Notes: generated from the letters alone by a model not told the origin. A stretch of 64,000 nt of DNA from an uncultured delta proteobacterium (GCA_963812015.1 CAWETI010000003.1:448001-512000), one strand, 5' to 3'; shown: positions 29,625-54,517, counted from the stretch's first letter. A program made the numbers and translations.

Positions 29625-29810
29625 CTAAAACTTCTCTCCCGGAAACAGACTGGCCAGGCTTTCCCGGGGGATGCGCCAGGGGCTGCGGCCCCACTTGACT
29701 CCGGCGATCCGGCCGTCACGCATCATCCGGTAGACGGTACGCCGGGAAATAACCAGGATCGCGGCCGCCTCATCCGGCCGAAAAAACCGCTTTTGGTGTA
29801 ATAATTCCAT
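29625..29810 (-). CDS. Excisionase-type (HTH_17/MerR-like) DNA-binding protein
   Basis: RPDEAAAILVISRRTVYRMMRDGRI...WRIPRESL; GGGAGG RBS. Confidence 0.85.
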   Translation of the reverse strand: MELLHQKRFFRPDEAAAILVISRRTVYRMMRDGRIAGVKWGRSPWRIPRESLASLFPGEKF

Positions 29811-29869
29811 CTTTCAGCCTCCCTGCTGTTTTAGATTGCTCTTCCTTAAGGGTTTTGAGGTTCTTGAGA

Positions 29870-29885
29870 TGCAAGGGGCACGCCA
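29870..29885 (-). promoter_or_regulatory. Sigma54-type -24/-12 promoter
   Basis: Minus strand TGGCGTGCCCCTTGCA (GG-N10-GC), 60 nt before the HTH ATG. Confidence 0.6.
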
Positions 29886-30000
29886 GGTTGCGGCGGCTAA
29901 GGATTAAAGGAAGAAACAAGCATCGTTGGTGGGCTTGAGGACACGGCGGCCGGGCCAGGCGCTTCATGGTTTCGGGCGACCCGGCGGGTCGCCCCTGCAA

Positions 30001-30124
30001 GCCATTTCAAAACCTGGATTGATGGAGAATGGTCATTCTGAGCGTAGCAAAGAATCTCGTGGTTTTAATAAGTTGAGATCCTTCACTCCGTTCAGGATGA
30101 CAAAAAAGCAGGTTTTGAAATAGC
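30001..30124. repeat. MITE-like element with TIRs enclosing a GTCATTCTGAGCG-type repeat pair
   Basis: GCCATTTCAAAACCTG ... CAGGTTTTGAAATAGC (15/16); inner repeat also at ~23118-23144 and ~26573-26600. Confidence 0.7.
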
Positions 30125-30623
30125 TTCTAGGGGTCACATCCCCAAGGCAATCCCTTCACGACACGCAAGCATAACTGATTGAATTCGCCCGGGAGGCCCA
30201 TCAGCAGATTACTTTACCCCCCACTATTAGCGGGATTTTCGCCCTTTACCCCTAGAGATTGGGAAAATCCCCCTAGACCGGTTGCACCGGGCGTGGCGCC
30301 TGGTATCCTACCCTTCCCGTCAGGCTGCCGGGGCCGATGATTATTGGGCGCCCCAGTGGTTTTTCCCTGAGCCGACCCCCAAGCCGGAGGTCGGCCGCCT
30401 GAAGCAGTGCACGAAAGAGGCCAAGGACCGCGGCTGGGCCTACCCATGCGGCCTGAAGCCGGGGGAATCGCGCCGCCATGATGATGCCATGGGCACGGTG
30501 TGGTTTGGGTCCTTGGCGGCCGGCAAACCGCAGGATATGGGACAGGAGGAGACAGGTGTCTTACGGGTTGCACGAATCTTGAAAGGGGTTAGAGGCACTG
30601 TGCCAAAAAAGGGAGGCAAGGCA

Positions 30624-30797
30624 ATGACGCAAGACCGTCTGATGAGACCCAGGGAAGTGGCCAACCGGCTGGCGGTGTCCAGATCCACGGTGTACCGCTG
30701 GTTTTGGGAGGGTAAGCTCAAGGGCGTCAAGATCACCGGGGGTACGGTCAGAATCCTGGAGAGCGCCATGAGGGATAAGATGGCCGAGATTTATTAA
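30624..30797 (+). CDS. Excisionase-type (HTH_17) DNA-binding protein
   Basis: GGGAGG RBS; LMRPREVANRLAVSRSTVYRWFWEGKL..VK...GTVRI. Confidence 0.85.
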   Translation: MTQDRLMRPREVANRLAVSRSTVYRWFWEGKLKGVKITGGTVRILESAMRDKMAEIY

Positions 30798-31060
30798 GGC
30801 GAACAGCGAGGTGATCAGACAGAGGCAAGATCGAACCGAGCGGCGGGGAAGCGCGGTCAAAGCCATCAGAAAAAGGGGTGCTGAGGATAGAGATTAAACC
30901 GGGCCGGCCCGGCAAGGCTCGGGGTGATTGCAGATGCGGGGGCAGAACAGGGGCCGCGGCTTTTATTTATTTTTTTTTTAAGAGGAGCAATGAGAGCTGA
31001 AGGACAACTGTTCCAGGCGTGCTGGAGATTAACCGGACTTTGTCGTATATCCAGGCAACC

Positions 31061-31531
31061 ATGACAGCGATCAGAAGCAGACCGAGGCGGGGAAAACGGG
31101 AACTTTATTGGGAGGACGCTCAATCACTTTTTCTGGCGGGCAAGGGACTGGAAGAAATTCGGCAGTTGCTGCCGGTGGCCCTCTCGACCTTAAAGCAGTG
31201 GCACCAAGAAGGACAGTGGGAAGAAAAAAGGCGGCAGGTACCGGTATCCCCCCGTTGGTTGGGTGAGGCTTTAAAGGGGGTCCTGAGGGAAAAGGCCGGC
31301 CGGCTCATCGTTAAAGGCGATCTGAAAACGACGGAGCTGGATGAAATCACCAAGCTGGTGACCCTCCTGGACCGCCTGTGCAGCCAGGGATGGGACATGC
31401 GGGCGGCGGCCTTGGAAGTGATGGACCGGTTCATTGAATTTTTGCGAGGCTGGGTGAAGGATCAGGAGGAATTGAAGCGGATTTCGTTCCGGGTCCAGGA
31501 GTTTTTCCGGCAACTGGAAGAAGAGACCTGA
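31061..31531 (+). CDS. Putative terminase small subunit (Mu gp27/DUF1804-like)
   Basis: N-terminal HTH (AQSLFLAGKGLEEIRQLLPVALSTLKQW...WEEKR), directly before terL. Confidence 0.7.
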   Translation: MTAIRSRPRRGKRELYWEDAQSLFLAGKGLEEIRQLLPVALSTLKQWHQEGQWEEKRRQVPVSPRWLGEALKGVLREKAGRLIVKGDLKTTELDEITKLVTLLDRLCSQGWDMRAAALEVMDRFIEFLRGWVKDQEELKRISFRVQEFFRQLEEET

Positions 31532-31633
31532 TCCGGGGTTCAGCCGAGGGCGGGGCGCAGGGCGCCCCCACAAGGTATCGAATGATTTTGACGGCGGGCA
31601 CGGAGGCCCGCGCCACTGGCACAAGGACGTACC

Positions 31634-33160
31634 ATGACCTTAAACAAGAAGTTGACCAAAAGTGAGTTTCGCCAGCGGGCCGATAAGATCCTGATGCGTC
31701 TGTCTTTGGAAGTAACGCCCTTTTGGGAGGACAGCGAAGACAGGCGCAAGCAGCGATTGGAGCGGGCCGCAGCGGACCCCTTATATTTCTGCCGCACTTA
31801 TCTGCCTCATTATTTTGCCCACGCGCCGGCGCCTTTCCACCATGAATTGGTGCAGATGCTGGAGCAGCGGGACGGCGAAGCGGTGACGCCCACGGCGGTG
31901 GCCGCGCCCCGGGAGTTTGCCAAAACCACGGTCTGCACCTTTGGATACGTTCTCCATCAAATCTGCCACCGAAGACGGCATTTCATTCTGATCGGCAGCG
32001 ATACTGAGGACCTGGCCTCCGATCTCACCGGCTACATCTACCTGGAGCTGCTTTATAACGAAAGACTGCACCAGGATTTCGGGGAGCTGGTCAAAGGCAA
32101 CAAGGCGGTGGATGATTTCGTCACCTTGAACGACATCCGGGTGAAAGCCCGGGGCCGGGGTCAGCGCCTCAGGGGTCTCAAGCACAAACAGTGGCGGCCG
32201 GATCTGGCCATCCTGGATGACCTGGAGAACGACGCCAACGTGCGGAATCCGGAAATCGTCCAGTCCATCCTGGACTGGGTGAAATCCGCGGTCTATTCCT
32301 CCCTGGATGCCCAGGGCAGCCTGATGATCATCGGCACCATTCTGCGGTGGCACAGCGCCCTGCACCAGATGCTGACCAGCCCGGATGAACCCTACTGCCA
32401 TTTTACGCGGCGGATTTACCGGGCATACAAGGAAGACGGGACCTCATTGTGGGAGGCCCGGCACCCGGTGGCGCGGCTCAAGCTGCAAAAGCAGTTGATG
32501 GGCACCGTGGCCTTTAACCGGGAAAAGATGAATGAACCGGCGCCGGATGGCGGCTTTTTCCAGGAGGATTGGATTCATTATTACCATCCGGACAGTTTGA
32601 AGGATCGGGACCTGGTGGTGGTGGGTTTTTTTGACCCTTCCCTGGAGACCGGGGCCACCTCGGACTACAAGGCTTTTGTCAGCGTGGGATGGGACCGCCG
32701 GGAAATGGTGATTTACGTGATGGATGCGGTCATCCAGAAAACCACCCTGGAGCAGGTTATGCGCACCATTTTTAACCGGCACCAGCAATTCAGCTATCAA
32801 CTGGTGGGGGTGGAAGACAATCTGTTTCAGCGGCTGCTGCTCAAGGAGTTCGACCGGATCGGCGTGGAGCGGGGCCAACTGCTTCCCCTGAGAGGGGTGA
32901 CCCACCGCATCGCCAAAGAAACCCGGGTGGCGGGCCTGTCGCCGCTGATGGAGCGGGGCAAGATTCGTTTCATCCGGGGGCATTCGGACCAGGAACTGTT
33001 GGTGGAGCAACTGCTCTTCTTCCCATCTCGGACGCTGCACGATGACGGGCCGGACGCCCTGGAAGGGGCGGTGGGCCTGGTCCGGGACGTGCCGACGGGC
33101 GAGGCGCCGAAATACACCCGGGTGAAGCCGCGGCTCTTCCAGAGCCGGGGGGCGTTTTAG
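31634..33160 (+). CDS. terL: Terminase large subunit
   Basis: APREFAKTT, LAILDDLE, FFDPS...DY, HDDGPDALE; motifs look intact. Confidence 0.92.
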   Translation: MTLNKKLTKSEFRQRADKILMRLSLEVTPFWEDSEDRRKQRLERAAADPLYFCRTYLPHYFAHAPAPFHHELVQMLEQRDGEAVTPTAVAAPREFAKTTVCTFGYVLHQICHRRRHFILIGSDTEDLASDLTGYIYLELLYNERLHQDFGELVKGNKAVDDFVTLNDIRVKARGRGQRLRGLKHKQWRPDLAILDDLENDANVRNPEIVQSILDWVKSAVYSSLDAQGSLMIIGTILRWHSALHQMLTSPDEPYCHFTRRIYRAYKEDGTSLWEARHPVARLKLQKQLMGTVAFNREKMNEPAPDGGFFQEDWIHYYHPDSLKDRDLVVVGFFDPSLETGATSDYKAFVSVGWDRREMVIYVMDAVIQKTTLEQVMRTIFNRHQQFSYQLVGVEDNLFQRLLLKEFDRIGVERGQLLPLRGVTHRIAKETRVAGLSPLMERGKIRFIRGHSDQELLVEQLLFFPSRTLHDDGPDALEGAVGLVRDVPTGEAPKYTRVKPRLFQSRGAF

Positions 33161-33165
33161 CAGGA

Positions 33166-33250
33166 GTGAGCAGTAACCGGTAAGCAGTGAGCAGTAGGGC
33201 GATTTGACCAAGCCTTTCCTCAACTCAGCTCACTGCTCGCAGCTCACTGT
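33166..33250. repeat. Inverted clusters of heptamer repeats (GTGAGCA/TGCTCAC-like)
   Basis: GTGAGCAGTAAC...CAGTGAGCAGT versus CTCACTGCTCGCAGCTCACTG. Confidence 0.55.
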
Positions 33251-33261
33251 TAGGAGAAACC

Positions 33262-34497
33262 ATGGGGCTGAAGGATTTATTCGGAAGGCTGTTTAAAGAG
33301 ACGGTGAAGCCGGAAACCCGGGAGTTGGCGGCGGTCAGCCTGGCAGAACGCTGGAGCAGTTACCCCAGCGCGGGGTTGACCCCGAACCGCCTGGCGGCAA
33401 TCTTCCGGGAGGCCGATCAAGGCAACGCTTATCGCCAGATGGAGCTGTTTGAGGAGATGGAGGAGAAGGACGCCCACCTGACGGCGATTCTCCAGACCCG
33501 GAAAATGGCGGTATTGGGCAAGGATTACGAGGTCATGCCCTATGCCAGGACCCCGGAAGACGAAGGGATTGCCGCGGAGGTGGGGGAGATCGTTTACGGC
33601 ATCCCCAACCTGGAGGAGGCCCTCCTGGACCTCATGGATGCCATCGGCAAAGGGTTTGCCCTGAGCGAAATCATCTGGGAGGTGACGGGCAGCCAGGCCC
33701 GGGTGGCGGAGCTGCGGTGGATTCCCCAGAAAAAGGTGACGTTCGGCGAAGACTGGAAGCCGCGCCTGCTGACGGCGGAAGCCAACTGGCAAGGGGTGGC
33801 GCCCCCGCTCTGGAAGGTCATTTATCACCGCTACAAGGCCAGGAGCGGTTACACCACCCGGTCGGGGGTTTTGCGGGTGGTGGGCTGGATGTACCTGCTC
33901 AAGAATTTTGCCTTGAAGGATTGGGCGGCGTTCAACGAGGTGTTCGGCATGCCGCTCAGACTGGGCAAGTATGATAACACGGCCTCTCCGGCGGACCGGG
34001 ATGCCCTGGTGCAGGCGATCCGGAACCTGGGTTCCGACGCGGCGGGAGTGATCAGCAAGGCCACCGAGATCGAATTTGTGGAAGCTACGTCCCGATCCGG
34101 GGGGGTCAACCCCTACCAGCTCATGGCGGAATTTTGCAACCGGGAAATGTCCAAGGCGGTCCTGGGACAAACCCTGACGACGGATACGACGGGGTCGACG
34201 GGGACGTATGGGGCGGCCAGCGTGCACGCCCAGGTGCGCCGGGACATGGTGGACGCCGACGCCCAGGCCCTTGCAAGCACCTTGAGAGAACAACTGCTGC
34301 GTCCCCTGGTGGGATTCAACTTCGGCTGGGATAAGCCCGTGCCCTGGTTCCGCTTCCGGTTTGAAGAGGAAGAGGACCTCAAGACTTTATCCGAGGTTTA
34401 CCGCAACCTGGCGGGCATGGGCGTGCCCCTGGACATGGAGCACGTGGCGGAGCGGTTCGGTATCCCGTTATCAGGGGCGGCGGGCAAGGGCAGTTAA
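33262..34497 (+). CDS. Mu gp29-like portal protein (DUF935)
   Basis: GLTPxRLAAIFREA, EEKDAHL, FGMPLRLGKY, EMSKAVLGQTLTT. Confidence 0.92.
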   Translation: MGLKDLFGRLFKETVKPETRELAAVSLAERWSSYPSAGLTPNRLAAIFREADQGNAYRQMELFEEMEEKDAHLTAILQTRKMAVLGKDYEVMPYARTPEDEGIAAEVGEIVYGIPNLEEALLDLMDAIGKGFALSEIIWEVTGSQARVAELRWIPQKKVTFGEDWKPRLLTAEANWQGVAPPLWKVIYHRYKARSGYTTRSGVLRVVGWMYLLKNFALKDWAAFNEVFGMPLRLGKYDNTASPADRDALVQAIRNLGSDAAGVISKATEIEFVEATSRSGGVNPYQLMAEFCNREMSKAVLGQTLTTDTTGSTGTYGAASVHAQVRRDMVDADAQALASTLREQLLRPLVGFNFGWDKPVPWFRFRFEEEEDLKTLSEVYRNLAGMGVPLDMEHVAERFGIPLSGAAGKGS

Positions 34498-34750
34498 TCG
34501 TGAGGAGCGGAATGCCTGGAGATTAACCTCACCCCCACCCCAACCCTCCCCCCTCAAGGGGGAGGGGGAAAAGGAAGGAATTCCGTTAGTGACCTGCTTG
34601 ATAGTGTTTGGCTGGTGTTTCGGGAGACGTGGATGGGGAGCGCGGGAAAAACCGGCAGCATAAGGCAACGGCAGGAAATGTCGTAAATGTCGTAAGGGTC
34701 GTCTTTATGCCGATGGCGGGAAAGACCAAGAATCAAATCATCAGGAGGGG

Positions 34751-35098
34751 GTGAAAAGCAGCATGAAAAAACTCATTATCGCCGCAGTCATCATGGGGTT
34801 ACTCACCGGCGCCGGGGCGGGGTGCCAAGCCTTGAAAAGCGCTTGGTGTTCCCCAACCGCGCAGGAGGTGGCGAACGCGGCTGACTACGTGGCCAGCGCT
34901 GACTCCATTCTGGCTTTTTTGAGCAGTCTGGCGCCCAGCGCCGAGGTAATGGCGGCCATGGCGGCTATCAAGATTGCCAAGAGCGTGTTTGACCAGATCA
35001 AGTCCGGCATCTGCGTGACGTCGGAACAGGAGTCGACCGCGCAGACGGCCATCCAGGCCAGTCAAGCGATGGCCATGAAGATGGGGTACAAGCCGTGA
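34751..35098 (+). CDS. Putative lipoprotein
   Basis: Signal peptide with lipobox-like GAGC; AGGAGG RBS. Confidence 0.65.
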   Translation: MKSSMKKLIIAAVIMGLLTGAGAGCQALKSAWCSPTAQEVANAADYVASADSILAFLSSLAPSAEVMAAMAAIKIAKSVFDQIKSGICVTSEQESTAQTAIQASQAMAMKMGYKP

Positions 35099-35892
35099 AA
35101 GGTTTGGGGTGGCGCAAGGAACATGCTGACCCGCGGGATCTGACCCACGGGGATATCCCCGGAGTATCCGACCGGGTTCAGGCAACGGAAGAAACGCCGG
35201 AGGTGAATTTCTTTACCTGGAGTCCTCCGATCAAAGACCAGGGCGATCTTGGTTCTTGCGTCGCCAATAGTATCGCCGGGGCCTATGAATTTGACGGCAT
35301 CAAGAACACCGGCCGGTATACGTCAGTGTCCCGCCTTTACCTTTACAAGGCGGCCCGGAGATTGGGAGGCTTTACCGGGGATTCCGGGGCCTATATTCGG
35401 GACGGGATGCGGGCGCTGGTAAGACTGGGGGCACCTCCGGAAGCCCTGTGGCCCTATAAGGTGGAAACCTTTGATGCCCCGCCTGATTTTGTGGCCACCG
35501 GATATGCCCAAAACTTCGAGGCCTTGCGCTATGTCAAACTGAAAAATCTGACGGAGATCAAGGCTTATATCCGGGCCGGCTTCCCGGTAATCTTCGGGTT
35601 CACGGTGTTCCCCGCCATCGACCAGGTTAAAGAAGATGGCTGGGTACCCATACCGAAATCCGGGGATCGGCCGGTGGGGGGGCATGCAGTATATAGCTGC
35701 GCCTATTCCAACCTCAAGCAGTCCGGCTATTGGCCGGATCCACCCGGCGCCATCGGGTTTATGAACAGCTGGGGTGATTGGGGGGATAAGGGGAAAGGCT
35801 GGCTGCCCTATGAATATTTTAACCAGGGTTTCTGTGATGATTTCTGGGCGCTCATTTCGGCCAAGCACCCGGATGATAACGACTTTAGCTGA
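35095..35892 (+). CDS. Papain-family (C1A) cysteine peptidase
   Basis: DQGDLGSC (Q, C), GGHAV (H), MNSWG (N). Confidence 0.9.
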   Translation: MKGLGWRKEHADPRDLTHGDIPGVSDRVQATEETPEVNFFTWSPPIKDQGDLGSCVANSIAGAYEFDGIKNTGRYTSVSRLYLYKAARRLGGFTGDSGAYIRDGMRALVRLGAPPEALWPYKVETFDAPPDFVATGYAQNFEALRYVKLKNLTEIKAYIRAGFPVIFGFTVFPAIDQVKEDGWVPIPKSGDRPVGGHAVYSCAYSNLKQSGYWPDPPGAIGFMNSWGDWGDKGKGWLPYEYFNQGFCDDFWALISAKHPDDNDFS

Positions 35893-36011
35893 TGAGCGGC
35901 CCGGTGATCTTTGATGCGGACAAGAACTGTCGTTGGGCCAAGTGGATTATGACCAGCCTGTTCGCAGTCCTCCTGGTCTTGATCGGGGTAGTACGATGGT
36001 GCGGGGACTGA
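35892..36011 (+). CDS. 39-aa single-TM protein
   Basis: TGATG coupling to the peptidase; MSGPVIFDADKNCRWAKWIMTSLFAVLLVLIGVVRWCGD. Confidence 0.45.
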   Translation: MSGPVIFDADKNCRWAKWIMTSLFAVLLVLIGVVRWCGD

Positions 36012-36116
36012 TGGGGCTGGAATATGCAGAGCAGCGGGACCTTGAGGCTTTAGGGGAGCCCGACTCAGGCAAAGCGGCTGAACGCCCCTCCTTGAAAAAC
36101 GCGAGGTGAGGAAAAG

Positions 36117-37157
36117 ATGACGATGACAGCAAACGCGGAAAGCCAGGACCAGGTGGTAGTCCTGCCGGAATGGATCAGGGTGCTCCCCCTGGGCCGAGTG
36201 GAATTGGCGGACCACCGGGAGCCGTTCATGGTGGACGAGGCCTCCCTCAAGTCCATGGTAGAGGCGTACCGATCCCGGGGGATAGACCTGGTGATCGATT
36301 ACGAGCATCAATCCCTGCAGGGGGAGCGGGCCCCGGCGGCAGGCTGGATCAAGGACCTGGAGGCCCGGGTCGACGGCCTCTGGGCCCGGGTAGATTGGAC
36401 CCAACAAGCCAGGGACTATCTGGAGAAGAAGGAGTACCGCTACTTCTCCCCCGTACTGCGGCTGGACCCCGAAACCCGCAGGCCTACGGCCCTGATGCAC
36501 GTAGGTCTGACCAACGTGCCGGCCATCAACCATCTGCCACCCCTGGTGGCCCGGTGGGGAGGTGAGGCCGCGGTCCAGGGAGAGCTGGCGCCGGAGGAAC
36601 CGGGACGATGGTCTCCGGCGATGGAGATGGAATCAGGAAAGGAGGAGGCGAAGATGGTGGAGCAGCTCAAACGCCTGATGGGTTTGAAGCCCGAGGAGGA
36701 AGAGCGGGTGGTGTGCGGCAAGGCGCTGGAGACGTTCCGGGACCTGGCCGCGACCTTGAATCTGCCGGGTGAGGTATCCGTGTCCCAACTGAAAGGGGCG
36801 GTGGAAGCCTTGAAGGCCGGGGCGGCGTGTTTGCTAAAGACCGAGGCGGAACTGCAGGCGCTTAAAGCCCGGCTGACGATGGAGACGGCCGACCGGGTGG
36901 TGGAAGAAGCCTTGAAGGCCGGCAAGGTCAGCCCGGCCCAACGGGGCTGGGCGCTGGAATATTGTCGCCGGGATCTGGAAGGCTTCCGGATTTATGTGGA
37001 ACGGGCCCCGAAATTGGTGCCCACCGGCGAGGAACTGCAGCTGCTCAGGGAGGAGCGCCATGACGAACGAGGTTTGCTCCCGGAGGAACTGGCCGTTTGC
37101 CGATCCCTGAACGTTTCTCCGGAAGCCTTTCTGAAGGCCAAGGCCCAAACCGGGTAG
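36117..37157 (+). CDS. Mu gpI-like prohead protease/scaffold
   Basis: LVIDYEHQ, APAAGWI, EYRYFSPV, GLTNVPAI; coiled-coil C-terminus. Confidence 0.93.
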   Translation: MTMTANAESQDQVVVLPEWIRVLPLGRVELADHREPFMVDEASLKSMVEAYRSRGIDLVIDYEHQSLQGERAPAAGWIKDLEARVDGLWARVDWTQQARDYLEKKEYRYFSPVLRLDPETRRPTALMHVGLTNVPAINHLPPLVARWGGEAAVQGELAPEEPGRWSPAMEMESGKEEAKMVEQLKRLMGLKPEEEERVVCGKALETFRDLAATLNLPGEVSVSQLKGAVEALKAGAACLLKTEAELQALKARLTMETADRVVEEALKAGKVSPAQRGWALEYCRRDLEGFRIYVERAPKLVPTGEELQLLREERHDERGLLPEELAVCRSLNVSPEAFLKAKAQTG

Positions 37158-37726: not shown

Positions 37727-37741
37727 ACGGAGGAAGCTCTC

Positions 37742-46484: not shown

Positions 46485-48161
46485 ATGCGGCAAGCTGGGC
46501 CGGAGTATCTGCAGAAAGAAGCGCTTTGCCGGGGCGCCCGACCCCGGGCGAAGGCGGTGCTTTTTCCCTATGAGCTGGACTACGGGCTGGCCCCGGGGTC
46601 CGGGGAGTTTGTCCAGACCGCCTATGGCGGGGAGCCGGGAAAACTGGCCATGGGCGACGGTTACTACACCTTCGGCTCCTGGACCTCCCCCGCCATCCAA
46701 ACGGCTTCGCCTTACCTGGACGAGGCGGTGCCTTCCTGGGAAGAGCCCACGGGGCACATGGACGTGGAGGTTCGGCTGCGCACCGGGGAGACGGCGCCAG
46801 GTTTGGCCCAGGCAGCTTTCACGCTCCTGGCGTCGGGGCAGACCATTTCCCTGGCCCCGTATTTTCAGGTGAAAGTTGACTTCAGCGAAACTATCCGGGC
46901 CTGGGGGCTGGATGACCCCGGAGAGGCGGATGGGTTTGCGGCCTATGCCGTGGACCAGAGCCCGGACGGAGGTTTTGAGAGCTCTGCCTCGGACGGACCG
47001 GGTTGTCTGGCCGATTTAAGCCTGGCGGGCCGGCTCACCCTCCCGGAGCGGGAAATCATTGATCCGGGGGGAGTGCGGGTGGAACTGGCCCGGGATTTCA
47101 GTGAGCTCAGGACCGCCGACCACGCCCTGGTCCTGGACAACCGGCTGGGGCAATGGCTGAACCGGGCCGAAAATTCCGCTCTCCTGGACTCGGACTGGAC
47201 CCAGAGGCAACTGGCGCTGTATCACGGCTGGGAGCTGGCCGACGGCACGGTGGCCTGGCAGTTACTCTACCAGGGAGTGGTGCAGCGCTTTTCCGGGATG
47301 GCCCACGGCTGGCGGGAGCCGCATCGCACCCGCCTGGAAAGCCAGGATTGGGTGGCGGCGGGGCTCAAGCAGATGATCGGCGTCCCGGCCGATACGGGAG
47401 AGCGGCGGCCGTTCATGCGGGGTACCTATCTGGCCCGGGGGGAGCTGACGCGGGTCATCGAGGCCACCGTGGGCGAGATCGCCCTGGTGGGCAGTAGCAG
47501 CGCCCCCCTGAATCTCCTGGGAACCTACCGGGGGGACTATGTCCAAAACTATGTCCTGGAAGTGGACACCGGCGGCGAAGTGGGGAGCGGCAAGTTCCGG
47601 TGGTCGCACGACCAGGGGCAGAGTTGGGAAAAGACGGGTTTGATTGCTGGCGGGGCGGATGCGCCGGTGCAGTTGGAGGAGGGCTTGTCGGTCTATTGGC
47701 AGGCGGGGGTGGGTCCGGACCTGGTGGCGGGGGACCGCTGGACCTTTACGGCGTTCCCGCCGGTTTACCAAAACCAGGTCTTTGGCGCCCCCTTCGCAGC
47801 CTTCACCGCAGTCTATCTCGACGGGGAAACCGACGACGACCGGGTGACGGCCGAGGCGAACACCGGCTTGATTGAGGTAAGTGGCAAGAACGCCCAGGTT
47901 TCGGCCAGGGTGGTCAAAGACTACACCACCCATCCGGTGGACATTGTGACCGATATACTGGCAGAAGTAGGTCTCGGCCAGGGCATCCATCAGGACTCCT
48001 TTGCCCTGGCCAAGAGCCTCACCCCCGAATACGCCATCGGCGTGAGGTTTGAAAACCTCACCGCGGCCCAGGCCATCCGGGAGATCGTCCGGCGCTGCCT
48101 GTACGATCTGTGGATCGATTTCGGAGAGATCAAGATCAAACCGTATCTGGGCGAGGCGTAA
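46485..48161 (+). CDS. Tail-tip/hub protein
   Basis: 558 aa in the tail-tip position; ends HPVDIVTDIL...DSF.LA...GEIKIKP. Confidence 0.6.
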   Translation: MRQAGPEYLQKEALCRGARPRAKAVLFPYELDYGLAPGSGEFVQTAYGGEPGKLAMGDGYYTFGSWTSPAIQTASPYLDEAVPSWEEPTGHMDVEVRLRTGETAPGLAQAAFTLLASGQTISLAPYFQVKVDFSETIRAWGLDDPGEADGFAAYAVDQSPDGGFESSASDGPGCLADLSLAGRLTLPEREIIDPGGVRVELARDFSELRTADHALVLDNRLGQWLNRAENSALLDSDWTQRQLALYHGWELADGTVAWQLLYQGVVQRFSGMAHGWREPHRTRLESQDWVAAGLKQMIGVPADTGERRPFMRGTYLARGELTRVIEATVGEIALVGSSSAPLNLLGTYRGDYVQNYVLEVDTGGEVGSGKFRWSHDQGQSWEKTGLIAGGADAPVQLEEGLSVYWQAGVGPDLVAGDRWTFTAFPPVYQNQVFGAPFAAFTAVYLDGETDDDRVTAEANTGLIEVSGKNAQVSARVVKDYTTHPVDIVTDILAEVGLGQGIHQDSFALAKSLTPEYAIGVRFENLTAAQAIREIVRRCLYDLWIDFGEIKIKPYLGEA

Positions 48162-48234
48162 GGGGCGTAGGGGCGGGTTTTAAACCCACCCCCACATCAA
48201 CTGTGGCCGTAATAATCGTTTAATGCGCCGAGTT

Positions 48235-48420
48235 ATAGAGCGATTGGCAAAAGTTCTTTCTATTATGTCACATGCTCCAAGAACCTAAATCCCCCCCACC
48301 CCCCTTTTTCAAAGGGGGGAACTTAACGGAATTCCTTTGAAAGTCCCCCTTTGACAAAGGGGGATTTAGGGGGATTTAAGAACCATCAATGGGAAGGAAT
48401 TGGCGGAAAACGCCATAAAT
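48235..48420. repeat. MITE/REP-like element, homologue of 24147-24320; GTAG-type REP just upstream (~48167-48195)
   Basis: Direct sequence comparison. Confidence 0.65.
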
Positions 48421-48509
48421 GCTTAACGTTAGCCTTTTTGCAAAAAGGGATCACCATGGGACGCATGCAATGGACCCGGGCCTCATAGTTTAATTGGGTC
48501 TTCGACAAT

Positions 48510-51500
48510 ATGGGCGGGACCCCGCTCCAGGCGGCGGTGGCCGGCAACTGGCAGCAGGCCGTGGCCACGGTGGATAGCGCGGGCCGCGTCGAGATCGGCA
48601 CCCCCAACCCCGGGGGCGGCCAAGTCTGCTGGGTGCGGGGGGTTTGGCGGCTGGACACCCAGTTCCCCTGGGAGGGCTTTTGGGCCGAGCCCATGGGCGG
48701 GGATGTCGCCAACTATTACCCGGGGGGGTCCTTTGCCAATGAGGCGGACCTGACCACCATCACCCTGGGGACGGCGCTGCCGGCCGGAACGCCGGTGCAG
48801 CTCTATTACCTCTATCTCACCGGTGAGCAAGCGATCAAGTATGAACCGCTGAACAATTATCCCTGCATCCGCCGGGCCTACCGGGCCCGGGATGACTACA
48901 CCTACGATTTTGCGGTGGACCGGATGCTGGAGCTGATGGTCTTGCTGCACCTGGCGGGGCGGGAGACGGGCCGGGACTATGGGGCGCTGATCCGGTTCAT
49001 CTGGGATGCCTTTGAGAAGCGGGAGGCGCCCCGGACTTCGCCCCTGATGCATGATGACTTTGAGCGCCAGCAGTGGGACCGGGGGGCGCACCTGCTCTAT
49101 CGCGGCGCCACCTATGGTGCAACCGCCTTTCAGGCCTTTCAAATCGAACTGGCGAGCGGCGGCGGCCGGGCCCTCCATGTGAAGGCGGCGCTGCCCACCA
49201 CCCAGGACGCGGCCTGGTTCGGCTACGGCCTGGACTGGTCCCTGGCCACCGACCCCTTCAAGGCCATGGACCGCCTCACCTTTACCTTGCAAGGGGCGGG
49301 CAGCACCAGCCTGATGCACAACCTCACCAAGATCGGCAGCGGCAGCGCCACCATGTTGCTCCTGGGGGACTACGCCAAGCAGGAAAAACGGCGGTTTTTG
49401 GTCCAGATGGAGAGCACGGGAGAGGTGGGGGCGGCCACTTTTCGCTGGTCCCGGGACGAAGGGCTCACCTGGGAAGCCACGGGCCTGACGAGCGGGAACC
49501 GGCAGCATCCGGTGGTCCTGGAGGACGAACTGGCCGTCGCCTGGGAGGGGGGAGACGGCACCGACCTGGTGGCGGGGGATTACTGGATGTTTTGGGCCGG
49601 CGAGCCCGCCATCCACCCCCGGCGGCTCCTAGTGACGCTGAACGACTCCAGCCCGGATGATTCTGACCCCTGGGGGCTGGAACATACGTATATCCATGCC
49701 ATACCGGACCGCTTCACCGAGGCGACGGCTTTTGACCTCCCCTTCAGTCAATTCTGGCGGCGGGACAATCTGATCGAAGACGGTGACCGGGTCCAGGCCA
49801 TGTGGGGCAGCTGGTATTCCGCCACCCAGCAGGACGCCGGCGACATCACCATCGGCACCCGGGAAGAGACAGAAGTCCTCCTGGGAGAGACCTTTTATAC
49901 CCAGCGGCAGATCACCTGGGACTTGACTGGGGCGGCCACCGCCTTCGGGGCGTGGGCCGGGATCGATACGGGCCGCTGCAGCTCCGCCGGGCGGGTCAAC
50001 GTCAACTTCCTCATCAAACCGGTGGTGAGCGGGGTCAGCTCTCTCACCATCCGGGTCAAAGTCAAAGACGCCCAGGGTAGTTATTTTTACCGGGAGGTGA
50101 CGGTCCCGGTCAATGACTGGCAGCGGGTGAGCGTGGCCCTGGGGGAGATGGCCCTGGAATCGGGCTCGTATCCCCTCACCCATCCCATCCAGGTGGTGGA
50201 CATCGGCTGCCCGTCTTCACCCCCCAGCAACGGGACGTTTTATCTCACCGACCTCAAGTTCGATGAGCATGTGACCTTTGCCGGGGCCGACCGCCTCAGG
50301 ACGCTGGAATTCAAGATGGAGCAGCAGGGCCTGGTGGAACATGAGTGGTGGCTGGACGAGGTGGCTCTGAACCTTACGGCTTCGGACCCCTATCCTTATG
50401 CGCCCCGGCAGGCCATTTCCCTGACCCCTTATGGGCAGAATCCCTGGCGGGGCCCCACCCTGGTGCATTATGCCCACCCCCTGGCGCCTTACCTGGTGGG
50501 GGCCTTGGACCTCAGCCAGACCTATCTTGGCTTGCACCGGGACGCCCAGGAGGAATATACCCGGCGTTACGGCGGAGCGCCGGGGCCCATCATGCCGGTC
50601 CATACCCGCAATGACGTGGAAAATATTCCCCTCTGCGGCGAGGAGGATTTTCTCCGGTTCTCCTGGTGGCGCCGGTACCGGGACTTCGGCAAGGTGGCGG
50701 GGTTCTGGCACTTCAACGGCGCGCTCACCGATGCCTCCGGGCGGGGCCACACCCTTGCCTGGCAGGGGGACGGCACCCCGAGCTATGCTGACGGCGTCTG
50801 TCAGCCGGGGCCCACCGCCCTGGACCTGGACGGCAGCCACTACTTGAGCCTGGACGACGCCGACCTGAACCTGGGGACGGAGGATTTCACCCTGGAGATG
50901 GTCCTCAAACCTGGGACCCTGGTTGACGGGGCCCGCCTCATCAGCAAAATAGCTACGGGGGGAGCGGGCTTTGAGGTGTGCCTGGGTCCGGGGGGGGCGG
51001 TGCAGTTGGTCATGGCGGACAGCAGCGGCGCCTCGGTCCTGACTCCCAACCCCGGGCTCAGCCTGGATACCGCCAATCATCACTACCTGGCGGTGTCTGG
51101 GGACCGGGATGGACAATTCACCTTCTGCGTGGTCGGCTCCCTGGGAACCGGTGCGGCGGCCCGGCCCGGTAGCCTGGATAACGGCGCGGCTTTCACGGTG
51201 GGGCGCCGGGCCGGGACGGCGGCGGGTTTTTTCCAGGGCCGGATCGACCTGATTCGGGTCCATCGGGGCCGGGCCCTGGGCGGGGCCGAACTCCAGGACA
51301 CCTGGGGGATCATCCAGGGCCGGGTGAACGGCTCGGCCTATCCGGAAGTGGGCAGCGGCCTGGGCCAGTACTGGGCCTTCCTGCGACTGGCGGAATTTTT
51401 CTTCCTGAGCAATGATGCCGGCGCGGAAACCATTTTGCTCAACTGGCTTACCTGGATCGATGAGGTTGGCGCGCCCGACGGCAATGGCTGGAAGGTACCG

Positions 51501-52604
51501 GGCCAATTCTCGGAGTTCGGCTTCACCTATGGAGCCTATGATCCCGGGCAGACTGCCGCCATCGCCCTGGGATGTCTCTTCATTTATCTGCGGAACGGCC
51601 ATGACGGGGCGGCTGCCTGGGTCCGGCGCCTCCTGGATGATCTCCGGGAAAACCGCGGGGACCCGGGGTTCGGCGGTTATAAGAGCGATTACCATTACGC
51701 CTGGCTCAACAGCCTGGTGCTCCGGGCCTTTGGGCTGGCGTCCCGGGGCGCGGCCGGGCAATCGTATGTCTTCCCGGCCAGGCCCGAAGACGGGGAACAA
51801 TTCGACCGCCTGATGGCCTGGGTCTGGGCCCATGCCGGGGACGAGAAGCCCAACGTCCTCAACGCCGACCTGATTCCGTTTGCTTACAGCGAGGCGGCGG
51901 ATGTCTGGGAATACGTCCCGAACTACCTGGCCATGAGCCAGATGGGGACCCTGGAGGCGGTGGTGGCCATGCTGGGCGCGGCCCTGGAACACGGCAAGGC
52001 AACGGGGGAGTGGACCTGGTGGCAGACCCTGCTGGACTTTATTCTGCTGGATAACCTGGTGGGGCTGTCCTCATCCCAGATCCGCGCCCTGACGCTGGCC
52101 TATGAGCAGACCGGCTCCAAAAACCTGGTGCGGGTGCTTTACGCCGACTACGACACGGACAATGACAAATATGCCGAGGCCCGGGAGACGGCGGCCATCA
52201 GCGCCTGGGGCGAGCAGGCCCTGGACCTGGATTGTCGCTACGGCTCCACGGTGATCCTGGAAGATCCGGAACTGGCCCAACTCCTGGCTTCCCGCCTGCT
52301 GGCCCGACTGGCGGCCCCCCGGGAACTGGCCGAAGTCCAGACCTGGCTGGAAGGAGTGCGCCTGGAACTGGGAGACACGGTGGCGCTCTCTTCGGACTTT
52401 CATGGGTTGGACCAGGAGGAATTTACCGTGAGCGGGAAAGACCTGGACCTGGGGGGGCGGTTGGTGCGCCTGAGCCTGGACCGGCCTTTGAACACCTCCT
52501 GGTCCTGGGCGGTGGACGCCCCGGGCGGCGCCAACGACGCCTGGGCCATCGACGTGGCCAGTTCCTATGACGGCAACTGGGCCTATCGGGCCGAGGCGGG
52601 ATAA
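48510..52604 (+). CDS. Large multidomain tail-tip protein (CBM-like, LamG, helical hydrolase-like and phage tail C-terminal domains); probable original start at 48456 is cut by a TAG
   Basis: LamG signature VAGFWHFNG..TDASGRG...FTLE...FQGRIDLIRV; C-terminal RLELGDTVAL...VRLSL. Confidence 0.75.
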   Translation: MGGTPLQAAVAGNWQQAVATVDSAGRVEIGTPNPGGGQVCWVRGVWRLDTQFPWEGFWAEPMGGDVANYYPGGSFANEADLTTITLGTALPAGTPVQLYYLYLTGEQAIKYEPLNNYPCIRRAYRARDDYTYDFAVDRMLELMVLLHLAGRETGRDYGALIRFIWDAFEKREAPRTSPLMHDDFERQQWDRGAHLLYRGATYGATAFQAFQIELASGGGRALHVKAALPTTQDAAWFGYGLDWSLATDPFKAMDRLTFTLQGAGSTSLMHNLTKIGSGSATMLLLGDYAKQEKRRFLVQMESTGEVGAATFRWSRDEGLTWEATGLTSGNRQHPVVLEDELAVAWEGGDGTDLVAGDYWMFWAGEPAIHPRRLLVTLNDSSPDDSDPWGLEHTYIHAIPDRFTEATAFDLPFSQFWRRDNLIEDGDRVQAMWGSWYSATQQDAGDITIGTREETEVLLGETFYTQRQITWDLTGAATAFGAWAGIDTGRCSSAGRVNVNFLIKPVVSGVSSLTIRVKVKDAQGSYFYREVTVPVNDWQRVSVALGEMALESGSYPLTHPIQVVDIGCPSSPPSNGTFYLTDLKFDEHVTFAGADRLRTLEFKMEQQGLVEHEWWLDEVALNLTASDPYPYAPRQAISLTPYGQNPWRGPTLVHYAHPLAPYLVGALDLSQTYLGLHRDAQEEYTRRYGGAPGPIMPVHTRNDVENIPLCGEEDFLRFSWWRRYRDFGKVAGFWHFNGALTDASGRGHTLAWQGDGTPSYADGVCQPGPTALDLDGSHYLSLDDADLNLGTEDFTLEMVLKPGTLVDGARLISKIATGGAGFEVCLGPGGAVQLVMADSSGASVLTPNPGLSLDTANHHYLAVSGDRDGQFTFCVVGSLGTGAAARPGSLDNGAAFTVGRRAGTAAGFFQGRIDLIRVHRGRALGGAELQDTWGIIQGRVNGSAYPEVGSGLGQYWAFLRLAEFFFLSNDAGAETILLNWLTWIDEVGAPDGNGWKVPGQFSEFGFTYGAYDPGQTAAIALGCLFIYLRNGHDGAAAWVRRLLDDLRENRGDPGFGGYKSDYHYAWLNSLVLRAFGLASRGAAGQSYVFPARPEDGEQFDRLMAWVWAHAGDEKPNVLNADLIPFAYSEAADVWEYVPNYLAMSQMGTLEAVVAMLGAALEHGKATGEWTWWQTLLDFILLDNLVGLSSSQIRALTLAYEQTGSKNLVRVLYADYDTDNDKYAEARETAAISAWGEQALDLDCRYGSTVILEDPELAQLLASRLLARLAAPRELAEVQTWLEGVRLELGDTVALSSDFHGLDQEEFTVSGKDLDLGGRLVRLSLDRPLNTSWSWAVDAPGGANDAWAIDVASSYDGNWAYRAEAG

Positions 52605-52666
52605 TTCCGGGGAGAGACCGCACCCCTCTCCCCCCATATTTCAATCAGGTTAAGCGAGGTTAATCC

Positions 52667-53722
52667 ATGTCTCTGATTTCCCTTCCCCAGAGCAAATGGG
52701 GCAGCGGCACCGGCCGCCAGGTTATTTTGAAAGGCGATTTCGCCAAGATCGAGCAGGCGCTTTTGGAGGGCTTCGACCTCACTCGGGGCCCCGGGCTGGA
52801 ATACGTGGACAGCGCCACCCTCCGGGTCAATGCCACGGGCGACTGCAAGGCCCGGGTGATGATGGGCGGTTTTCCTTCCCCCCTGGCCCGGGGCCACTGG
52901 GTGGATGGGGGCCTGAGCGATGGCCGCTACCGGGAGAACGCCGCCGCGGTGAGCCTGAACCTGGCCACCGCCGGGCAAATCTGGGGCACCGAGAAGTCCG
53001 CCCAGTGGTATGCCGTCTATGCCCTGGCGGGAGCCACTGACACCATCTTCTCCCTGAAAGCCATGCCGCTCATCAGGGTGGCTTCCCAGGACGGGCAGGT
53101 GATCACCCTGAGAAACAACGCCAATGGGGCCAACATCGGCTATGGGTTCACCGCCAACGAACTGGCGGGGGCCGCGCTCCTGATCCTCAGCGGCGCGTCC
53201 CGGGGCCTGGTCCGGGCCATCACCGCCAACAATGACGACAACGCCACCGGGGGCACCATCACCTATGGGGGCGCGGCCCTGAGCCTGGCCCAGGGGGATT
53301 GGGGCGTGGTCCTGCCGGCCACCAACTTTCGGTACCTCGGCATGATATTGAACGATGCCAGCGGCAACCTGGTCCCCTTTTACCAGGAAGGGGGCCGCAC
53401 CAGTTACCGCAGCCCCCGGCAGTTATGCGCCGGGGCCCTGAACGGCTATACCCTGATGGACCTGGGCCTGGTGGCGCCGCCGACGGCGTATGTGCTTACA
53501 GGGTATGCGGCGGGCGCGGCCGGCTACGACGTGAAGCTGGCCGTGTCCTACGACGGCAGCACCCCGGCCCTGGTGGTTCACGCGGCCCCGCCGTCCGGGA
53601 CCTTCCAGGGCGAGCGGGGGGCCATCCCCTTTGCCTGCCAGGTTCTGCCGGGGGACCGGGTGTATCTGAACAATGAGAACACCGCCAATCAGGCGGTCAA
53701 GATTACGGGTTGGAGGGAATGA
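52667..53722 (+). CDS. Putative tail fibre/receptor-binding protein
   Basis: Last tail gene; WYAVYA, FRYLG.I.NDASGN...FYQ. Confidence 0.6.
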   Translation: MSLISLPQSKWGSGTGRQVILKGDFAKIEQALLEGFDLTRGPGLEYVDSATLRVNATGDCKARVMMGGFPSPLARGHWVDGGLSDGRYRENAAAVSLNLATAGQIWGTEKSAQWYAVYALAGATDTIFSLKAMPLIRVASQDGQVITLRNNANGANIGYGFTANELAGAALLILSGASRGLVRAITANNDDNATGGTITYGGAALSLAQGDWGVVLPATNFRYLGMILNDASGNLVPFYQEGGRTSYRSPRQLCAGALNGYTLMDLGLVAPPTAYVLTGYAAGAAGYDVKLAVSYDGSTPALVVHAAPPSGTFQGERGAIPFACQVLPGDRVYLNNENTANQAVKITGWRE

Positions 53723-53982
53723 TGACGCTGGAAGGCAAGAAAACCTATATCACGGCGACGGTGCTGGCCCTGGCCAGTTTTGCCCTGGCCATGGACTGGC
53801 TGAGCAAAGAACAGTACCAGGTGATCGTCGGCCTGGTGGGCTCCCTGGGACTGGCGGCGCTGCGGTCCGGGGTGGCCAAGGGCGCCGGGGATCAGGCTAA
53901 GGAAGGTGGCCAGGACGAGGCGGTGACTTTTGTCGGAGGGGCCAGGTCTGCGGCCAGGTCCAGCATCGGCGGCAATGGCTAA
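53719..53982 (+). CDS. Holin-like two-TM protein
   Basis: LEGKKTYI.A, two TMs, LGLAALRSGV. Confidence 0.6.
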   Translation: MMTLEGKKTYITATVLALASFALAMDWLSKEQYQVIVGLVGSLGLAALRSGVAKGAGDQAKEGGQDEAVTFVGGARSAARSSIGGNG

Positions 53983-54038
53983 AGGAAAAAACGGGGTGGC
54001 AGGCGGGGTGCCCCCTTGAATAATTCCTGGGAAAAACC

Positions 54039-54305
54039 ATGATGTATTATCAAGACCTGAGTGAACACGTGGGGGCCCTGGTCACACTGCTGGGCCTTTT
54101 CGCCGGGGTGAGCGGCTTTTTGGTGTGGCGTATGCTGGCGCGCATGGAGAAGAAGTTGGACGAGCTGGCGCACCATTTTTGCAGTTGCCGGGAGGAGCTG
54201 GGCGAGCGCTTTGTCCCCCGGTTTGAGCATGAGGTGGAGCACCACGGTGTGTGGGAGGCCCTCAATTACCACAGTCACGATATACGGGGGAGGGTGGTGC
54301 GATGA
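54039..54305 (+). CDS. Single-TM coiled-coil protein (lysis-module type)
   Basis: TM followed by RMEKKLDEL. Confidence 0.6.
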   Translation: MMYYQDLSEHVGALVTLLGLFAGVSGFLVWRMLARMEKKLDELAHHFCSCREELGERFVPRFEHEVEHHGVWEALNYHSHDIRGRVVR

Positions 54306-54517
54306 TTGAAGACCGGGTGGATTGTCTGGTCAACCATTTACATGTCACCTGTCTGACCCTCATCAGGCTCAAGAAAGAGGCGGTCTATGGTCAGGATCCC
54401 GGCTTCCTGGAGCTTTTGGGTGGATATTTACTGCATAGCCGTCAGTTAATGGACCTCATCCGGGACCGGGAGGAAACGGGAAAACCGCGCCGGGGGCGGT
54501 TTGCGTACCCCTGCTGA
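54302..54517 (+). CDS. Hypothetical protein
   Basis: ATGA overlap with the previous gene; GGAGGG RBS. Confidence 0.55.
   Translation: MIEDRVDCLVNHLHVTCLTLIRLKKEAVYGQDPGFLELLGGYLLHSRQLMDLIRDREETGKPRRGRFAYPC

Follow-up and report, generated by a model that had tools for sequence, protein, structure and literature searches.

A phage-derived morphogenesis locus lies beside the host gene ftsH in the genome of an uncultured delta proteobacterium, and we consider it highly probable that this locus was fixed in the ancestor of its order, the sulfate-reducing Desulfobaccales, and has been kept by selection. The locus occupies positions 29625-54517 (~25 kb) of the analysed stretch of 64,000 nucleotides (the window, G000:C3:448001-512000), which comes from a genome of 3.96 Mb in 6 contigs, 99.9% complete. 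Presence at the same site in relatives, low ratios of non-synonymous to synonymous substitution (dN/dS), the lack of recognisable MuA and MuB, and congruent trees together give good support to a domesticated, vertically inherited cluster devoted to morphogenesis. The best single explanation of the whole, to which we assign a probability of about 0.6, is a mechanism like that of a gene transfer agent (GTA), in which particles would package host DNA and carry it to related cells. A preliminary description of this sequence had proposed such a particle: the vertically inherited, selected, morphogenesis-only cluster stands, and the packaging and transfer of DNA is a prediction. That description had also named four outcomes that would speak against it, namely absence or scattered positions in relatives, neutral dN/dS, cognate MuA and MuB elsewhere in the genome, and particles that package only this locus. 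Three of the four were checked, and all outcomes favoured its reading.

Position, inheritance and selection

All genes of the block are on the plus strand save the first, which is on the minus strand. Gene identities were taken from Pfam and PHROGs profile searches, and these matches, together with the flanks, bore out the earlier view of one co-oriented morphogenesis block between ftsH and cvpA-mazG. On the left, host genes stand in the order ftsH-folP-cdaA-ybbR. The ftsH gene itself (27520-29433, minus strand; Peptidase_M41, AAA and FtsH_ext) lies outside the element as its conserved left anchor. On the right, cvpA-mazG follow beyond a 2-kb low-GC island.

To cover the relatives, the capsid gene and terL, the gene for the large terminase subunit, were searched in related genomes. 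The capsid gene was found in 34 of 41 genomes, and its identity dropped from 95% to 49% with distance. By group, it was present in 15 of 17 genomes of the same genus, 7 of 7 from other genera of the family, 11 of 14 from a second family and 0 of 2 from elsewhere in the phylum. The terL gene was found in 72 of 83 Desulfobaccales genomes (53 of the 58 of high quality) and in 17 of 17 genera. The apparent absences coincide with cut or missing ftsH loci: among the genomes of the order that lacked a capsid match, terL of G010 stands at the end of a contig, ftsH is cut by a contig end in G032, the orthologous ftsH is missing from the assemblies of G036 and G038, and G003 is 56% complete.

When the ftsH locus of relatives was searched for the cluster, as had been suggested earlier, it was present at the same place across the order. 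Nine of ten fetched 32-kb loci had the same gene order adjoining ftsH, and the tenth was a second, partial copy. Among 43 public loci of the Desulfobaccales type, 26 reached at least 1.5 kb beyond the helix-turn-helix (HTH) gene of the cluster and were counted as informative; 24 of these adjoin ftsH, the exceptions being L054 and L064. Insertion at varied chromosomal sites is a mark of Mu-like phages, whereas here the site is the same across the order. The gap between ftsH and the cluster measured ~190-350 bp in 14 loci and 1.1-2.3 kb in 10 loci. In L049, L054, L055, L065 and L074 it holds a REC-TPR response regulator of ~405 amino acids (aa) on the same strand as HTH_17 (~1.9-4.0 kb), and in G027 a DHO_dh-like gene. 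The cvpA-mazG flank on the right is common to genera g1, g6 and g16, and other genera differ; the relatives' right flanks examined contained host genes only and no integrase. The ~405-aa open reading frame (ORF) between ftsH and the HTH gene of other genera had been considered as an integrase; it proved to be the REC-TPR regulator and has no orthologue in G000. Placed beside HTH_17, this regulator may supply a host signalling input in those genera.

Trees of the cluster were compared with the host. The ftsH tree and a tree of concatenated terL, portal and capsid sequences (25 loci) had 16 of 22 splits in common, against a mean of 0.19 and a maximum of 3 in 2000 label permutations. Patristic distances of ftsH and cluster were correlated (r = 0.93), and this value was reached by 0 of 5000 Mantel permutations. 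Linkage takes some force from this comparison: ftsH adjoins the cluster and is not a fully independent host marker, so genome-based genus labels were used as an independent test. The terL tree had 61 rows, with terL taken from 51 of the 72 matching genomes (a single near-full-length match; split or partial matches were left out). On its 52 labelled rows, from 15 genera, there were 14 genus changes, the minimum possible, and 1 family change; 300 shuffles of the genus labels gave a mean of 35.9 changes and a minimum of 32. When outgroups were included, the capsids and portals linked to ftsH grouped in a single clade. Results showed that the cluster trees agree with the ftsH tree and with the taxonomy based on genomes.

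Nei-Gojobori dN/dS against the closest relatives was 0.07-0.38 for the cluster genes and 0.47 for the distal gene o351, far below 1, at dS values of 0.25-1.3. The dS of the cluster resembled that of the flanking host genes: against G004 it was 0.34 for ftsH, 0.41 for folP and 0.36 for mazG, and 0.30 for the capsid, 0.41 for the portal and 0.46 for terL, with a similar pattern against G001. The GC content was 0.611 in the cluster vs 0.581 in the genome. In GC, GC at third codon positions (GC3) and codon usage the cluster fell within the range of the long host ORFs, so the host-like composition noted in the preliminary description held, save for o493 (GC 0.51). Position, presence in the genera, the terL tree and dS indicate that the cluster is transmitted vertically as part of the cellular genome.

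These results bear on a decaying, defective prophage, functionless and kept by chance, which had been put forward earlier as an alternative. The losses of the early region, of the lysis genes and of Mu F and G would fit it, as would the remnant in part of genus g16 and the loss of the tube and tape measure protein (TMP) genes in genus g9. However, the conserved genes are all open once one assembly error is set aside, dN/dS stays within 0.07-0.47 at the dS given above, and the cluster is kept in every genus, while neutral decay over such divergence would have destroyed the reading frames. We regard simple decay as extremely improbable, and it is not supported, at least in this genome.

Two supposed lesions had been read as signs of decay or of assembly errors. 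At 44637 the frame of the window changes within a G7/C6 run of the gene at 44401-44783. The two halves of this gene share one frame in 28 of the 29 relatives' loci that hold both, the gap between them being 9 bases in those relatives and 8 in the window, and contigs from three RNA runs and from the probable source run (7.83 of 7.83 in depth) have an extra G behind 44636. The shared frame and the extra G make 44637 a one-base homopolymer assembly error in an intact gene; they also rule out a programmed -1 frameshift in the style of the tail-chaperone pair G/GT. At 48486 no gene is broken. A dispersed host repeat (48162-48509; 77 blastn matches in the genome) forms a non-coding insertion between two open genes, both intact, where relatives have ~25 bp.

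A second host repeat, resembling a miniature inverted-repeat transposable element (MITE), lies in the regulatory spacer at 30001-30130 (41 blastn matches in the genome at ~90% identity), and the earlier statement that host repeats fill the spacers holds for both places. The spacers 34498-34750 and 46239-46484 also carry repeats, with 12 and 10 blastn matches in the genome. At least two families of dispersed MITE-like repeats are present in the cluster spacers, and read joints pair the repeats at ~34529 and ~46352 in opposite orientation. The longest direct repeat shared by the borders of the block has 14 bases (29551-29564 and 54508-54521) and occurs only twice in the genome. A border repeat of at least 14 bases appeared in 2 of 200 shuffles, and this one is absent from 10 relatives' loci at ≤1 mismatch; as it is not shared with them, it was treated as chance and not as attachment (att) sites.

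Missing autonomy and phage ancestry

Searches of the block with Pfam and PHROGs gave no family match to a transposase, MuB, Gam, Mor, repressor, integrase, replication protein or endolysin, with a sensitivity limited to recognisable families. The claim of the preliminary description that no transposase, MuB, repressor, gam, mor or integrase can be recognised was thereby confirmed. In the genome, tblastn with CI, Ner, A, B, Gam, Mor, F and G of the Mu-like phage Meltemi (Casadabanvirus), and with Gam, SLT and M15 peptidase of a phage-like contig (L118, below), found no match at E <= 1e-3. Nine rve matches were found in G000, all in frames of ≤482 aa, the size of insertion sequences (IS), and the Meltemi transposase used as control was detected by rve. 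Genome searches with Pfam DDE_2 and Mu-transpos_C were uninformative because their controls went undetected (DDE_2 gave the control only 15.8 bits). By tblastn and rve, then, no cognate MuA or MuB was found elsewhere in the genome, and the pair of DDE transposase A and ATPase B that characterises Mu-like phages was detected neither in the block nor in the genome. Within the recognisable families, the block and the relatives' loci are alike free of genes for autonomous replication, integration or transposition. A pair of IS-type transposase genes of the rve family is located ~30 kb to the left of the cluster (G000:C3:445410-446913), and five identical copies of a 309-aa frame (rve, IS-type) lie elsewhere in the genome.

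The nearest phage terL sequences, at ~31% identity, belong to Casadabanvirus and other Mu-like phages. Meltemi matches the window in terL, portal, protease and capsid, at 31-41% and in the same order, and in no other genes. Its first 13 kb encode a CI-like repressor, Ner, transposase, AAA+ B, Gam and Mor, which have no counterpart in the cluster; its later region carries terL, portal, F-like, G, protease and capsid genes, then a siphovirus tail with a 1232-aa TMP. One genome, G074, carries the orthologous cluster on one contig and on another, the 15-kb L118 (G074:C107), genes for Gam, an SLT transglycosylase and an M15 peptidase, both HTH_17 genes in tandem, and related head genes (terL 39%, portal 58%, protease 43% and p135 66% identity). 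L118 ends before any transposase could appear. It looks like a wild relative of the ancestor of the cluster, free-living or a prophage, and this is likely what it is. Compared with such phages, the cluster appears to have lost the early region, the lysis enzymes and Mu F and G, and one HTH_17 gene seems to have been inverted.

Related terL genes (56-57% identity) were also found in 8 of 9 genomes of family f18, the only other family with a close terL in a sample of 301 genomes of the phylum. The f18 prophages (L125-L131; G098, G352, G139, G175) contain Mor, terS, terL, an HK97-type portal, an S78 protease and Phage_tube_2. The sequences flanking them differ from genome to genome, which makes these prophages a natural control for the fixed ftsH-linked cluster and led us to reject a second domesticated cluster in f18. 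A different element in the same genus as the window (L116, G005:C46, 5700-10300) has a second terL (58%) and, after it, a portal of 753 aa to which a Mu F domain is fused.

The same data were used to weigh an active temperate phage family that would always integrate beside ftsH by means of unrecognised integration and replication functions. Many small ORFs of the cluster have no assigned role, related Mu-like phages occur in the same hosts (L118), and fragments of the locus are classed as viral in IMG/VR, all of which would suit such a family. Yet no integrase, transposase or replication gene is present in any locus examined, and no att-type repeat is held in common with relatives. Host genes (REC-TPR, DHO_dh-like) are inserted between ftsH and the cluster in some lineages, the right flanks differ, host MITE-like repeats sit inside the cluster, and genus labels fit the terL tree perfectly. 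Contig depths in the probable source run were also alike, 7.4 for the ftsH piece and 7.8-9.3 for the cluster pieces, with one 669-base piece at 4.7. An active phage family is very unlikely on this evidence.

Genes of the predicted particle

The genes for head, packaging, connector, tube, TMP and tail tip form a complete-looking set, all open, as far as the genes themselves can be read. The roles proposed earlier held for terL, portal, protease, capsid and TMP by family matches and for the tube by its fold; terS is probable, and the cement and holin-like roles come from position and hydrophobicity, with no family match.

The element opens with a 61-aa HTH_17 protein (29625-29810, minus strand; PF12728, E 1.7e-12), a presumed regulator that is divergent from the cluster and forms its conserved left end (53-89% identity in 9 of 9 syntenic loci; dN/dS 0.07-0.27). 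A second HTH_17 protein of ~72 aa (30579-30797, plus strand, as for all genes below; PF12728, E 6.5e-10; phrog_66) is 47% identical to the first and is presumed to be the late-gene activator; conservation of the ORF 30282-30797 in relatives is confined to residues ~100-171, the C-terminal part with this second HTH_17. A sigma-54 promoter between the HTH gene and terL was considered and dropped, since a consensus search gave 1 weak match in 25 loci.

The probable gene for the small terminase subunit (terS, 170 aa, 31019-31531) stands directly upstream of terL and has a weak match to the DNA-binding family phrog_4151 (E 6e-6). It is 41-82% conserved in relatives. With the ORF that precedes terL in f18 prophages it shares 26-30% identity, and in one of them that ORF has a weak match to PF10668. 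The large subunit gene terL (31634-33160; phrog_38, E 8e-92; dN/dS 0.08-0.15) belongs to the Mu/D3112 lineage. In g15 and part of g16, the terL match is split in two (residues 1-80 and 83-508) inside a single open frame of 540-600 aa, which suggests an in-frame insertion near the N-terminus. Next come the 411-aa Mu-type portal (33262-34497; Portal_Mu PF06074, E 5e-108; dN/dS 0.10-0.14), the head protease/scaffold of Mu gpI type (36117-37157; Mu-like_Pro PF10123, E 1e-70; phrog_328), the 135-aa virion structural protein p135, possibly a head decoration or cement protein (37319-37726; phrog_1731, E 2e-33; dN/dS 0.11-0.20), and the major capsid protein of Mu gpT type (37742-38638; Mu-like_gpT PF10124, E 1e-107; dN/dS 0.08-0.22), which has a single copy in the genome. 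Further right stand the head-tail adaptor of the Mu Gp36 family (42167-42589; PF07030, E 3e-28; phrog_195) and the connector of the Mu Gp37 family (42600-43031; PF08873, E 1e-17). All five Pfam families of the Mu-type head module (portal, gpI, gpT, Gp36 and Gp37) scored above their cut-offs.

Between the portal and protease genes sits an insert found in only part of the genus (34751-35892), with a 115-aa ORF and a papain-like cysteine peptidase of 265 aa (PF00112, E 9e-5). In Mu this slot holds F and G, both missing here. The capsid gene is followed by a conserved 112-aa protein with no family match (38708-39046; 35-88% identity in many relatives) and by a variable cassette (39234-41506) that encodes o493, a 493-aa protein with an Ig-like/CarboxypepD_reg domain, and a 264-aa protein (weak PF13620 and Big_1 matches); these are presumed to be receptor-binding appendage genes. 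A 130-aa protein (41683-42075) matches phrog_1084, whose function is unassigned in PHROGs. The spacing from the capsid to gp36 ranges from 164 to 5842 bp across 33 loci, and this slot holds foreign-looking genes in the window and a 975-aa tailspike-like protein in G027, which suggests that it carries swappable receptor-binding parts.

The tail begins with the 431-aa tube protein o431 (43053-44348), of the duplicated T5 pb6/P74-26 type. Its AlphaFold model (predicted local distance difference test, pLDDT, 67.7) matched the P74-26 tail tube at E 4e-9 and T5/DT57C tubes at a probability of 1.00, and mean column identity among 13 orthologues is 81%. The ~128-aa gene at 44401-44783, which reads frameshifted in the window for want of one G near 44636, has the position of a tail chaperone. 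A Cys-rich 112-aa protein (44774-45112; 49-85% conserved) starts in overlap with the stop of that gene. The short TMP follows (254 aa, 45099-45863), with matches to phrog_339 (E 4e-6) and phrog_24 that cover the C-terminal part of the TMP profiles only; its length is kept across family f1 and genus g10. Set against the 1232 aa of the TMP in Meltemi, it fits the 'miniature tail' of the preliminary description. A 121-aa protein (45873-46238; 54-90% identity; dN/dS 0.09-0.35) is assigned to the tail tip by its position after the TMP. The 558-aa protein o558 (46485-48161) is like a tail-tip or baseplate hub protein: its AlphaFold model (pLDDT 81.7) has its best matches in DT57C and T5 tail-tip chains (probability 0.99-1.00, with low template modelling (TM) scores). 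Sequence searches of the PDB with profiles of o558 and o431 gave no match.

At the right end, a 1364-aa protein resembling a central tail fibre or host-specificity protein (48510-52604; Laminin_G_3, E 1e-11) is 44-82% conserved. The 351-aa o351 (52667-53722; 55-84% identity in 8 loci, no family match) is a conserved protein whose distal tail role is taken from position. A 90-aa protein with two hydrophobic segments (53710-53982) is holin-like by inspection; its N-terminal part is conserved, and it has no family match. Two 88-aa proteins, the first with one hydrophobic segment, form the conserved right end (54039-54517; no family match), and the first of them, o88a, has 41-91% identity in 8 of 8 loci that reach that far and a dN/dS of 0.07. 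The low-GC island between cluster and cvpA (54600-56700; GC 0.32-0.42) has ORFs of 116, 165 and 129 aa, which had no Pfam, PHROG or PADLOC match and are absent from the 10 relatives' loci compared; PADLOC run on the island and on the insert genes likewise gave no match.

Proposed function and known systems

We propose that the cluster derives from the late region of a Mu/D3112-like transposable siphophage, whose early region (repressor, A/B, Gam, Mor), lysis enzymes and F/G would have been lost. This late region would have become fixed beside ftsH in the common ancestor of the Desulfobaccales and then been inherited vertically under purifying selection. The two retained HTH_17 regulators would switch on the operon under host control, and terminase, portal, protease/scaffold and capsid would build a Mu-type head, filled by the headful from the chromosome. 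The T5-like tube, measured by the 254-aa TMP, would make a very short non-contractile tail, tipped by the large fibre protein and by swappable receptor-binding cassettes. Released particles would then deliver host DNA to related cells, as a GTA-like viriform of independent origin. The genes for terminase, portal and capsid belong to the most constrained of the cluster, and for this reason a particle filled with DNA is the expected product of selection; and since the element can neither replicate nor excise, the packaged DNA should come from the chromosome, which favours a GTA-like role.

Several observations weigh against this mechanism. Particle production, the packaged DNA, release and delivery are predicted from the genes alone. 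No endolysin was recognised in the cluster, and the SLT and M15 enzymes of the phage relative have no homologue in the genome at E <= 1e-3, which leaves particle release unexplained. A Mu-type T=7 head has a capacity of ~37-40 kb and would hold the 25-kb cluster, so on present evidence the inability to carry its own genes, expected of a GTA, is not established, and a full-length terS could still recognise a pac site. The locus can also be reduced or lost in some lineages. Loci of the Desulfobacca-like genus g9 lack everything from inside Gp37 up to the 121-aa tip protein, with tube, chaperone, Cys-rich protein and TMP gone and a 263-aa Gp37-tip fusion protein remaining. In g16, G057 and G052 retain only ftsH, two HTH_17 genes, a terL-like gene, a 224-aa ORF and cvpA-mazG, and the terL of G057, G052, G061 and G062 forms a long branch, sister to the intact g16 copy. 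In genus g10, protease-p135-capsid are at 41-51% vs 64-73% for terL, portal and tube, and this divergent capsid module may reflect recombination with phages. Some genomes have additional protease and capsid copies elsewhere. The RNA data, by contrast, count in favour of the mechanism, within limits: contigs of at least 90% identity from three wetland metatranscriptome runs (three studies) fell on 29, 30 and 30 of 30 bins of 27500-47499, ftsH included, with the bin 39506-40172 (variable o493) almost uncovered; they speak for presence in RNA libraries, which may include DNA, and give no level or strand.

Two of these subjects come with further observations. The solitary terL-like gene of L114 (G057, 7900-11400) and L117 (G052) is open and fast-evolving (60% identity), which is odd for a lone terminase. 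Protease and capsid pairs away from the ftsH locus (L024 of G027, 9436-12344; L070, 8423-10897) adjoin polysaccharide-related genes (beta-helix protein, heparinase, glycosyltransferases), and their capsids nest in the Desulfobaccales clade.

The capacity of the head and the intact terS bear on a selfish, immobilised element that would package itself. From a pac site retained in or near the locus, heads would be filled in situ with the cluster and rightward DNA, in a Mu-type or lateral-transduction-like way, and the element would be spread or repaired in relatives by homologous recombination. The terL of the Mu/D3112 headful lineage, the full length of terS, a cluster smaller than the Mu-type head and the hint of recombinational exchange in the g10 capsid module are consistent with this. 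In Mu, however, the pac site is at the left end next to the early region, and the early region is gone here. Moreover, the terL tree fits the genus taxonomy exactly, leaving little room for frequent transfer between genera, and dS equals that of the flanking host genes. We judge self-packaging decidedly unlikely.

The evidence of vertical inheritance and selection applies equally to a domesticated particle with a role other than transfer, like PBSX of Bacillus subtilis. Host DNA would then be a by-product, and the particle would kill or compete with related strains, or lysis of the producer would release DNA and nutrients. Rapidly swapped receptor-binding cassettes suit targeting at the level of strains, and PBSX, which packages 13.4-kb host fragments, is called only 'GTA-like' in the account of PMC12946183. 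Killing of the tailocin type, on the other hand, needs no terminase, portal or capsid, yet these genes have dN/dS of 0.08-0.15 here; in addition, the predicted tail is of a very short, non-contractile kind, and domains for puncturing or lysis were not recognised. We consider such a role unlikely.

A bolder form of the GTA-like mechanism is put forward tentatively, at somewhat under even odds. The cluster may represent a sixth GTA family of independent origin, the first to descend from a transposable phage of the Mu type and, within Desulfobacterota, the first whose genes are identified. It would have been fixed at ftsH before the Desulfobaccales diversified and would still be active in wetland and sediment populations. 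Since Mu-type terminases fill heads directly from the chromosome, it may carry out a directional export resembling lateral transduction, and its lineages may form a series of tail reduction, from the short T5-like tail in most to the deleted tube and TMP and the Gp37-tip fusion in g9.

The genetic basis of GTAs is known for only a handful of lineages. If the GTA-like mechanism is true, it would add another independent origin, from a different type of phage and in anaerobes that abound in wetlands, sediments and groundwater. It would also show the domestication of phage particles to be recurrent, suggest a way in which genes are exchanged in anoxic habitats and offer a tractable comparative series of loci, from intact to tube-less to remnant. 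The locus is classed as phage by prophage predictors and in viral catalogues (IMG/VR fragments), by which lysogeny counts and virus-host links can be distorted. Our full-text literature searching found no paper describing an ftsH-linked element of Desulfobaccales. PMC8146710 counts Desulfobacca acetoxidans among poly-lysogens, with no further detail in the passage concerned, and PMC11602168 reports 25 MITEs in "phages of Desulfobaccales", a possible case of such mislisting. PMC9662315 evaluates three GTA groups and characterises GTAs as particles like tailed-phage virions that pass on vertically with the cell's genome, have no autonomous means of replicating, integrating or transposing, enclose at best part of their own genome along with essentially random host DNA, and are induced by the host in a small subpopulation; on induction, the cluster offers its two conserved HTH_17 regulators and the matching contigs of three RNA libraries. 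By the wording of PMC12946183 (2026) the described elements are still "very few".

Compared with known systems, the cluster is set apart from tailocins, which are tail-only and lack head and packaging genes, by its terminase, portal and capsid genes, all strongly constrained. Dd1 comes from Desulfovibrio desulfuricans, and Desulfovibrio is one of the sulfate reducers of the wider group once called Deltaproteobacteria; we know of no gene assignment for Dd1. It is listed among the characterised GTAs in PMC12946183, belongs to a different order from the Desulfobaccales and is set beside the cluster by description only.

With Casadabanvirus (D3112, JBD26, Meltemi) and Mu, the cluster has in common the order of terL-portal-protease-capsid, at 31-41% identity to Meltemi, Gp36/Gp37 and, for Casadabanvirus, a non-contractile tail. 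Unlike these phages, it has no repressor, Ner, A, B, Gam, Mor, F, G or lysis genes, it is found at a fixed chromosomal site instead of random ones, its TMP has 254 vs 1232 aa, and its tail genes are dissimilar at the BLAST level. The predicted fold of the 431-aa tube is of the duplicated type of T5 (pb6) and P74-26, and the 558-aa protein resembles T5/DT57C tail-tip chains, although identity is only 8-10%, TM scores are 0.3-0.5 and the TMP here is several times shorter.

The tail of PBSX is contractile and its gene set differs, whereas the cluster has no sheath gene. Both are chromosomally fixed, non-replicating, phage-derived particle loci, and PBSX packages host DNA (PMC12946183).

The RcGTA-type GTAs of Alphaproteobacteria (Rhodogtaviriformidae) have an unrelated viral ancestor, while the cluster has Mu-type head genes, a terminase of the Mu/D3112 lineage and a T5-like tube, and packaging and transfer are, for the cluster, gene-based predictions. 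In the family search, with the RcGTA proteins themselves not compared, its head genes fell in Mu families and not with the HK97-type portal, protease and capsid of RcGTA; the only overlap with RcGTA families was Phage-tail_3, matched by the 1364-aa protein at 21.4 bits, under the cut-off of 23. As the scaffold-bearing protease is kept, a reduced head is not implied. The likeness lies in organisation and history: like RcGTA, the cluster is a morphogenesis-only head-tail cluster without replication or integration genes, inherited vertically at the level of an order, co-diverging with its hosts under purifying selection and host-like in composition (PMC9662315), with a short tape measure and a large distal fibre protein.

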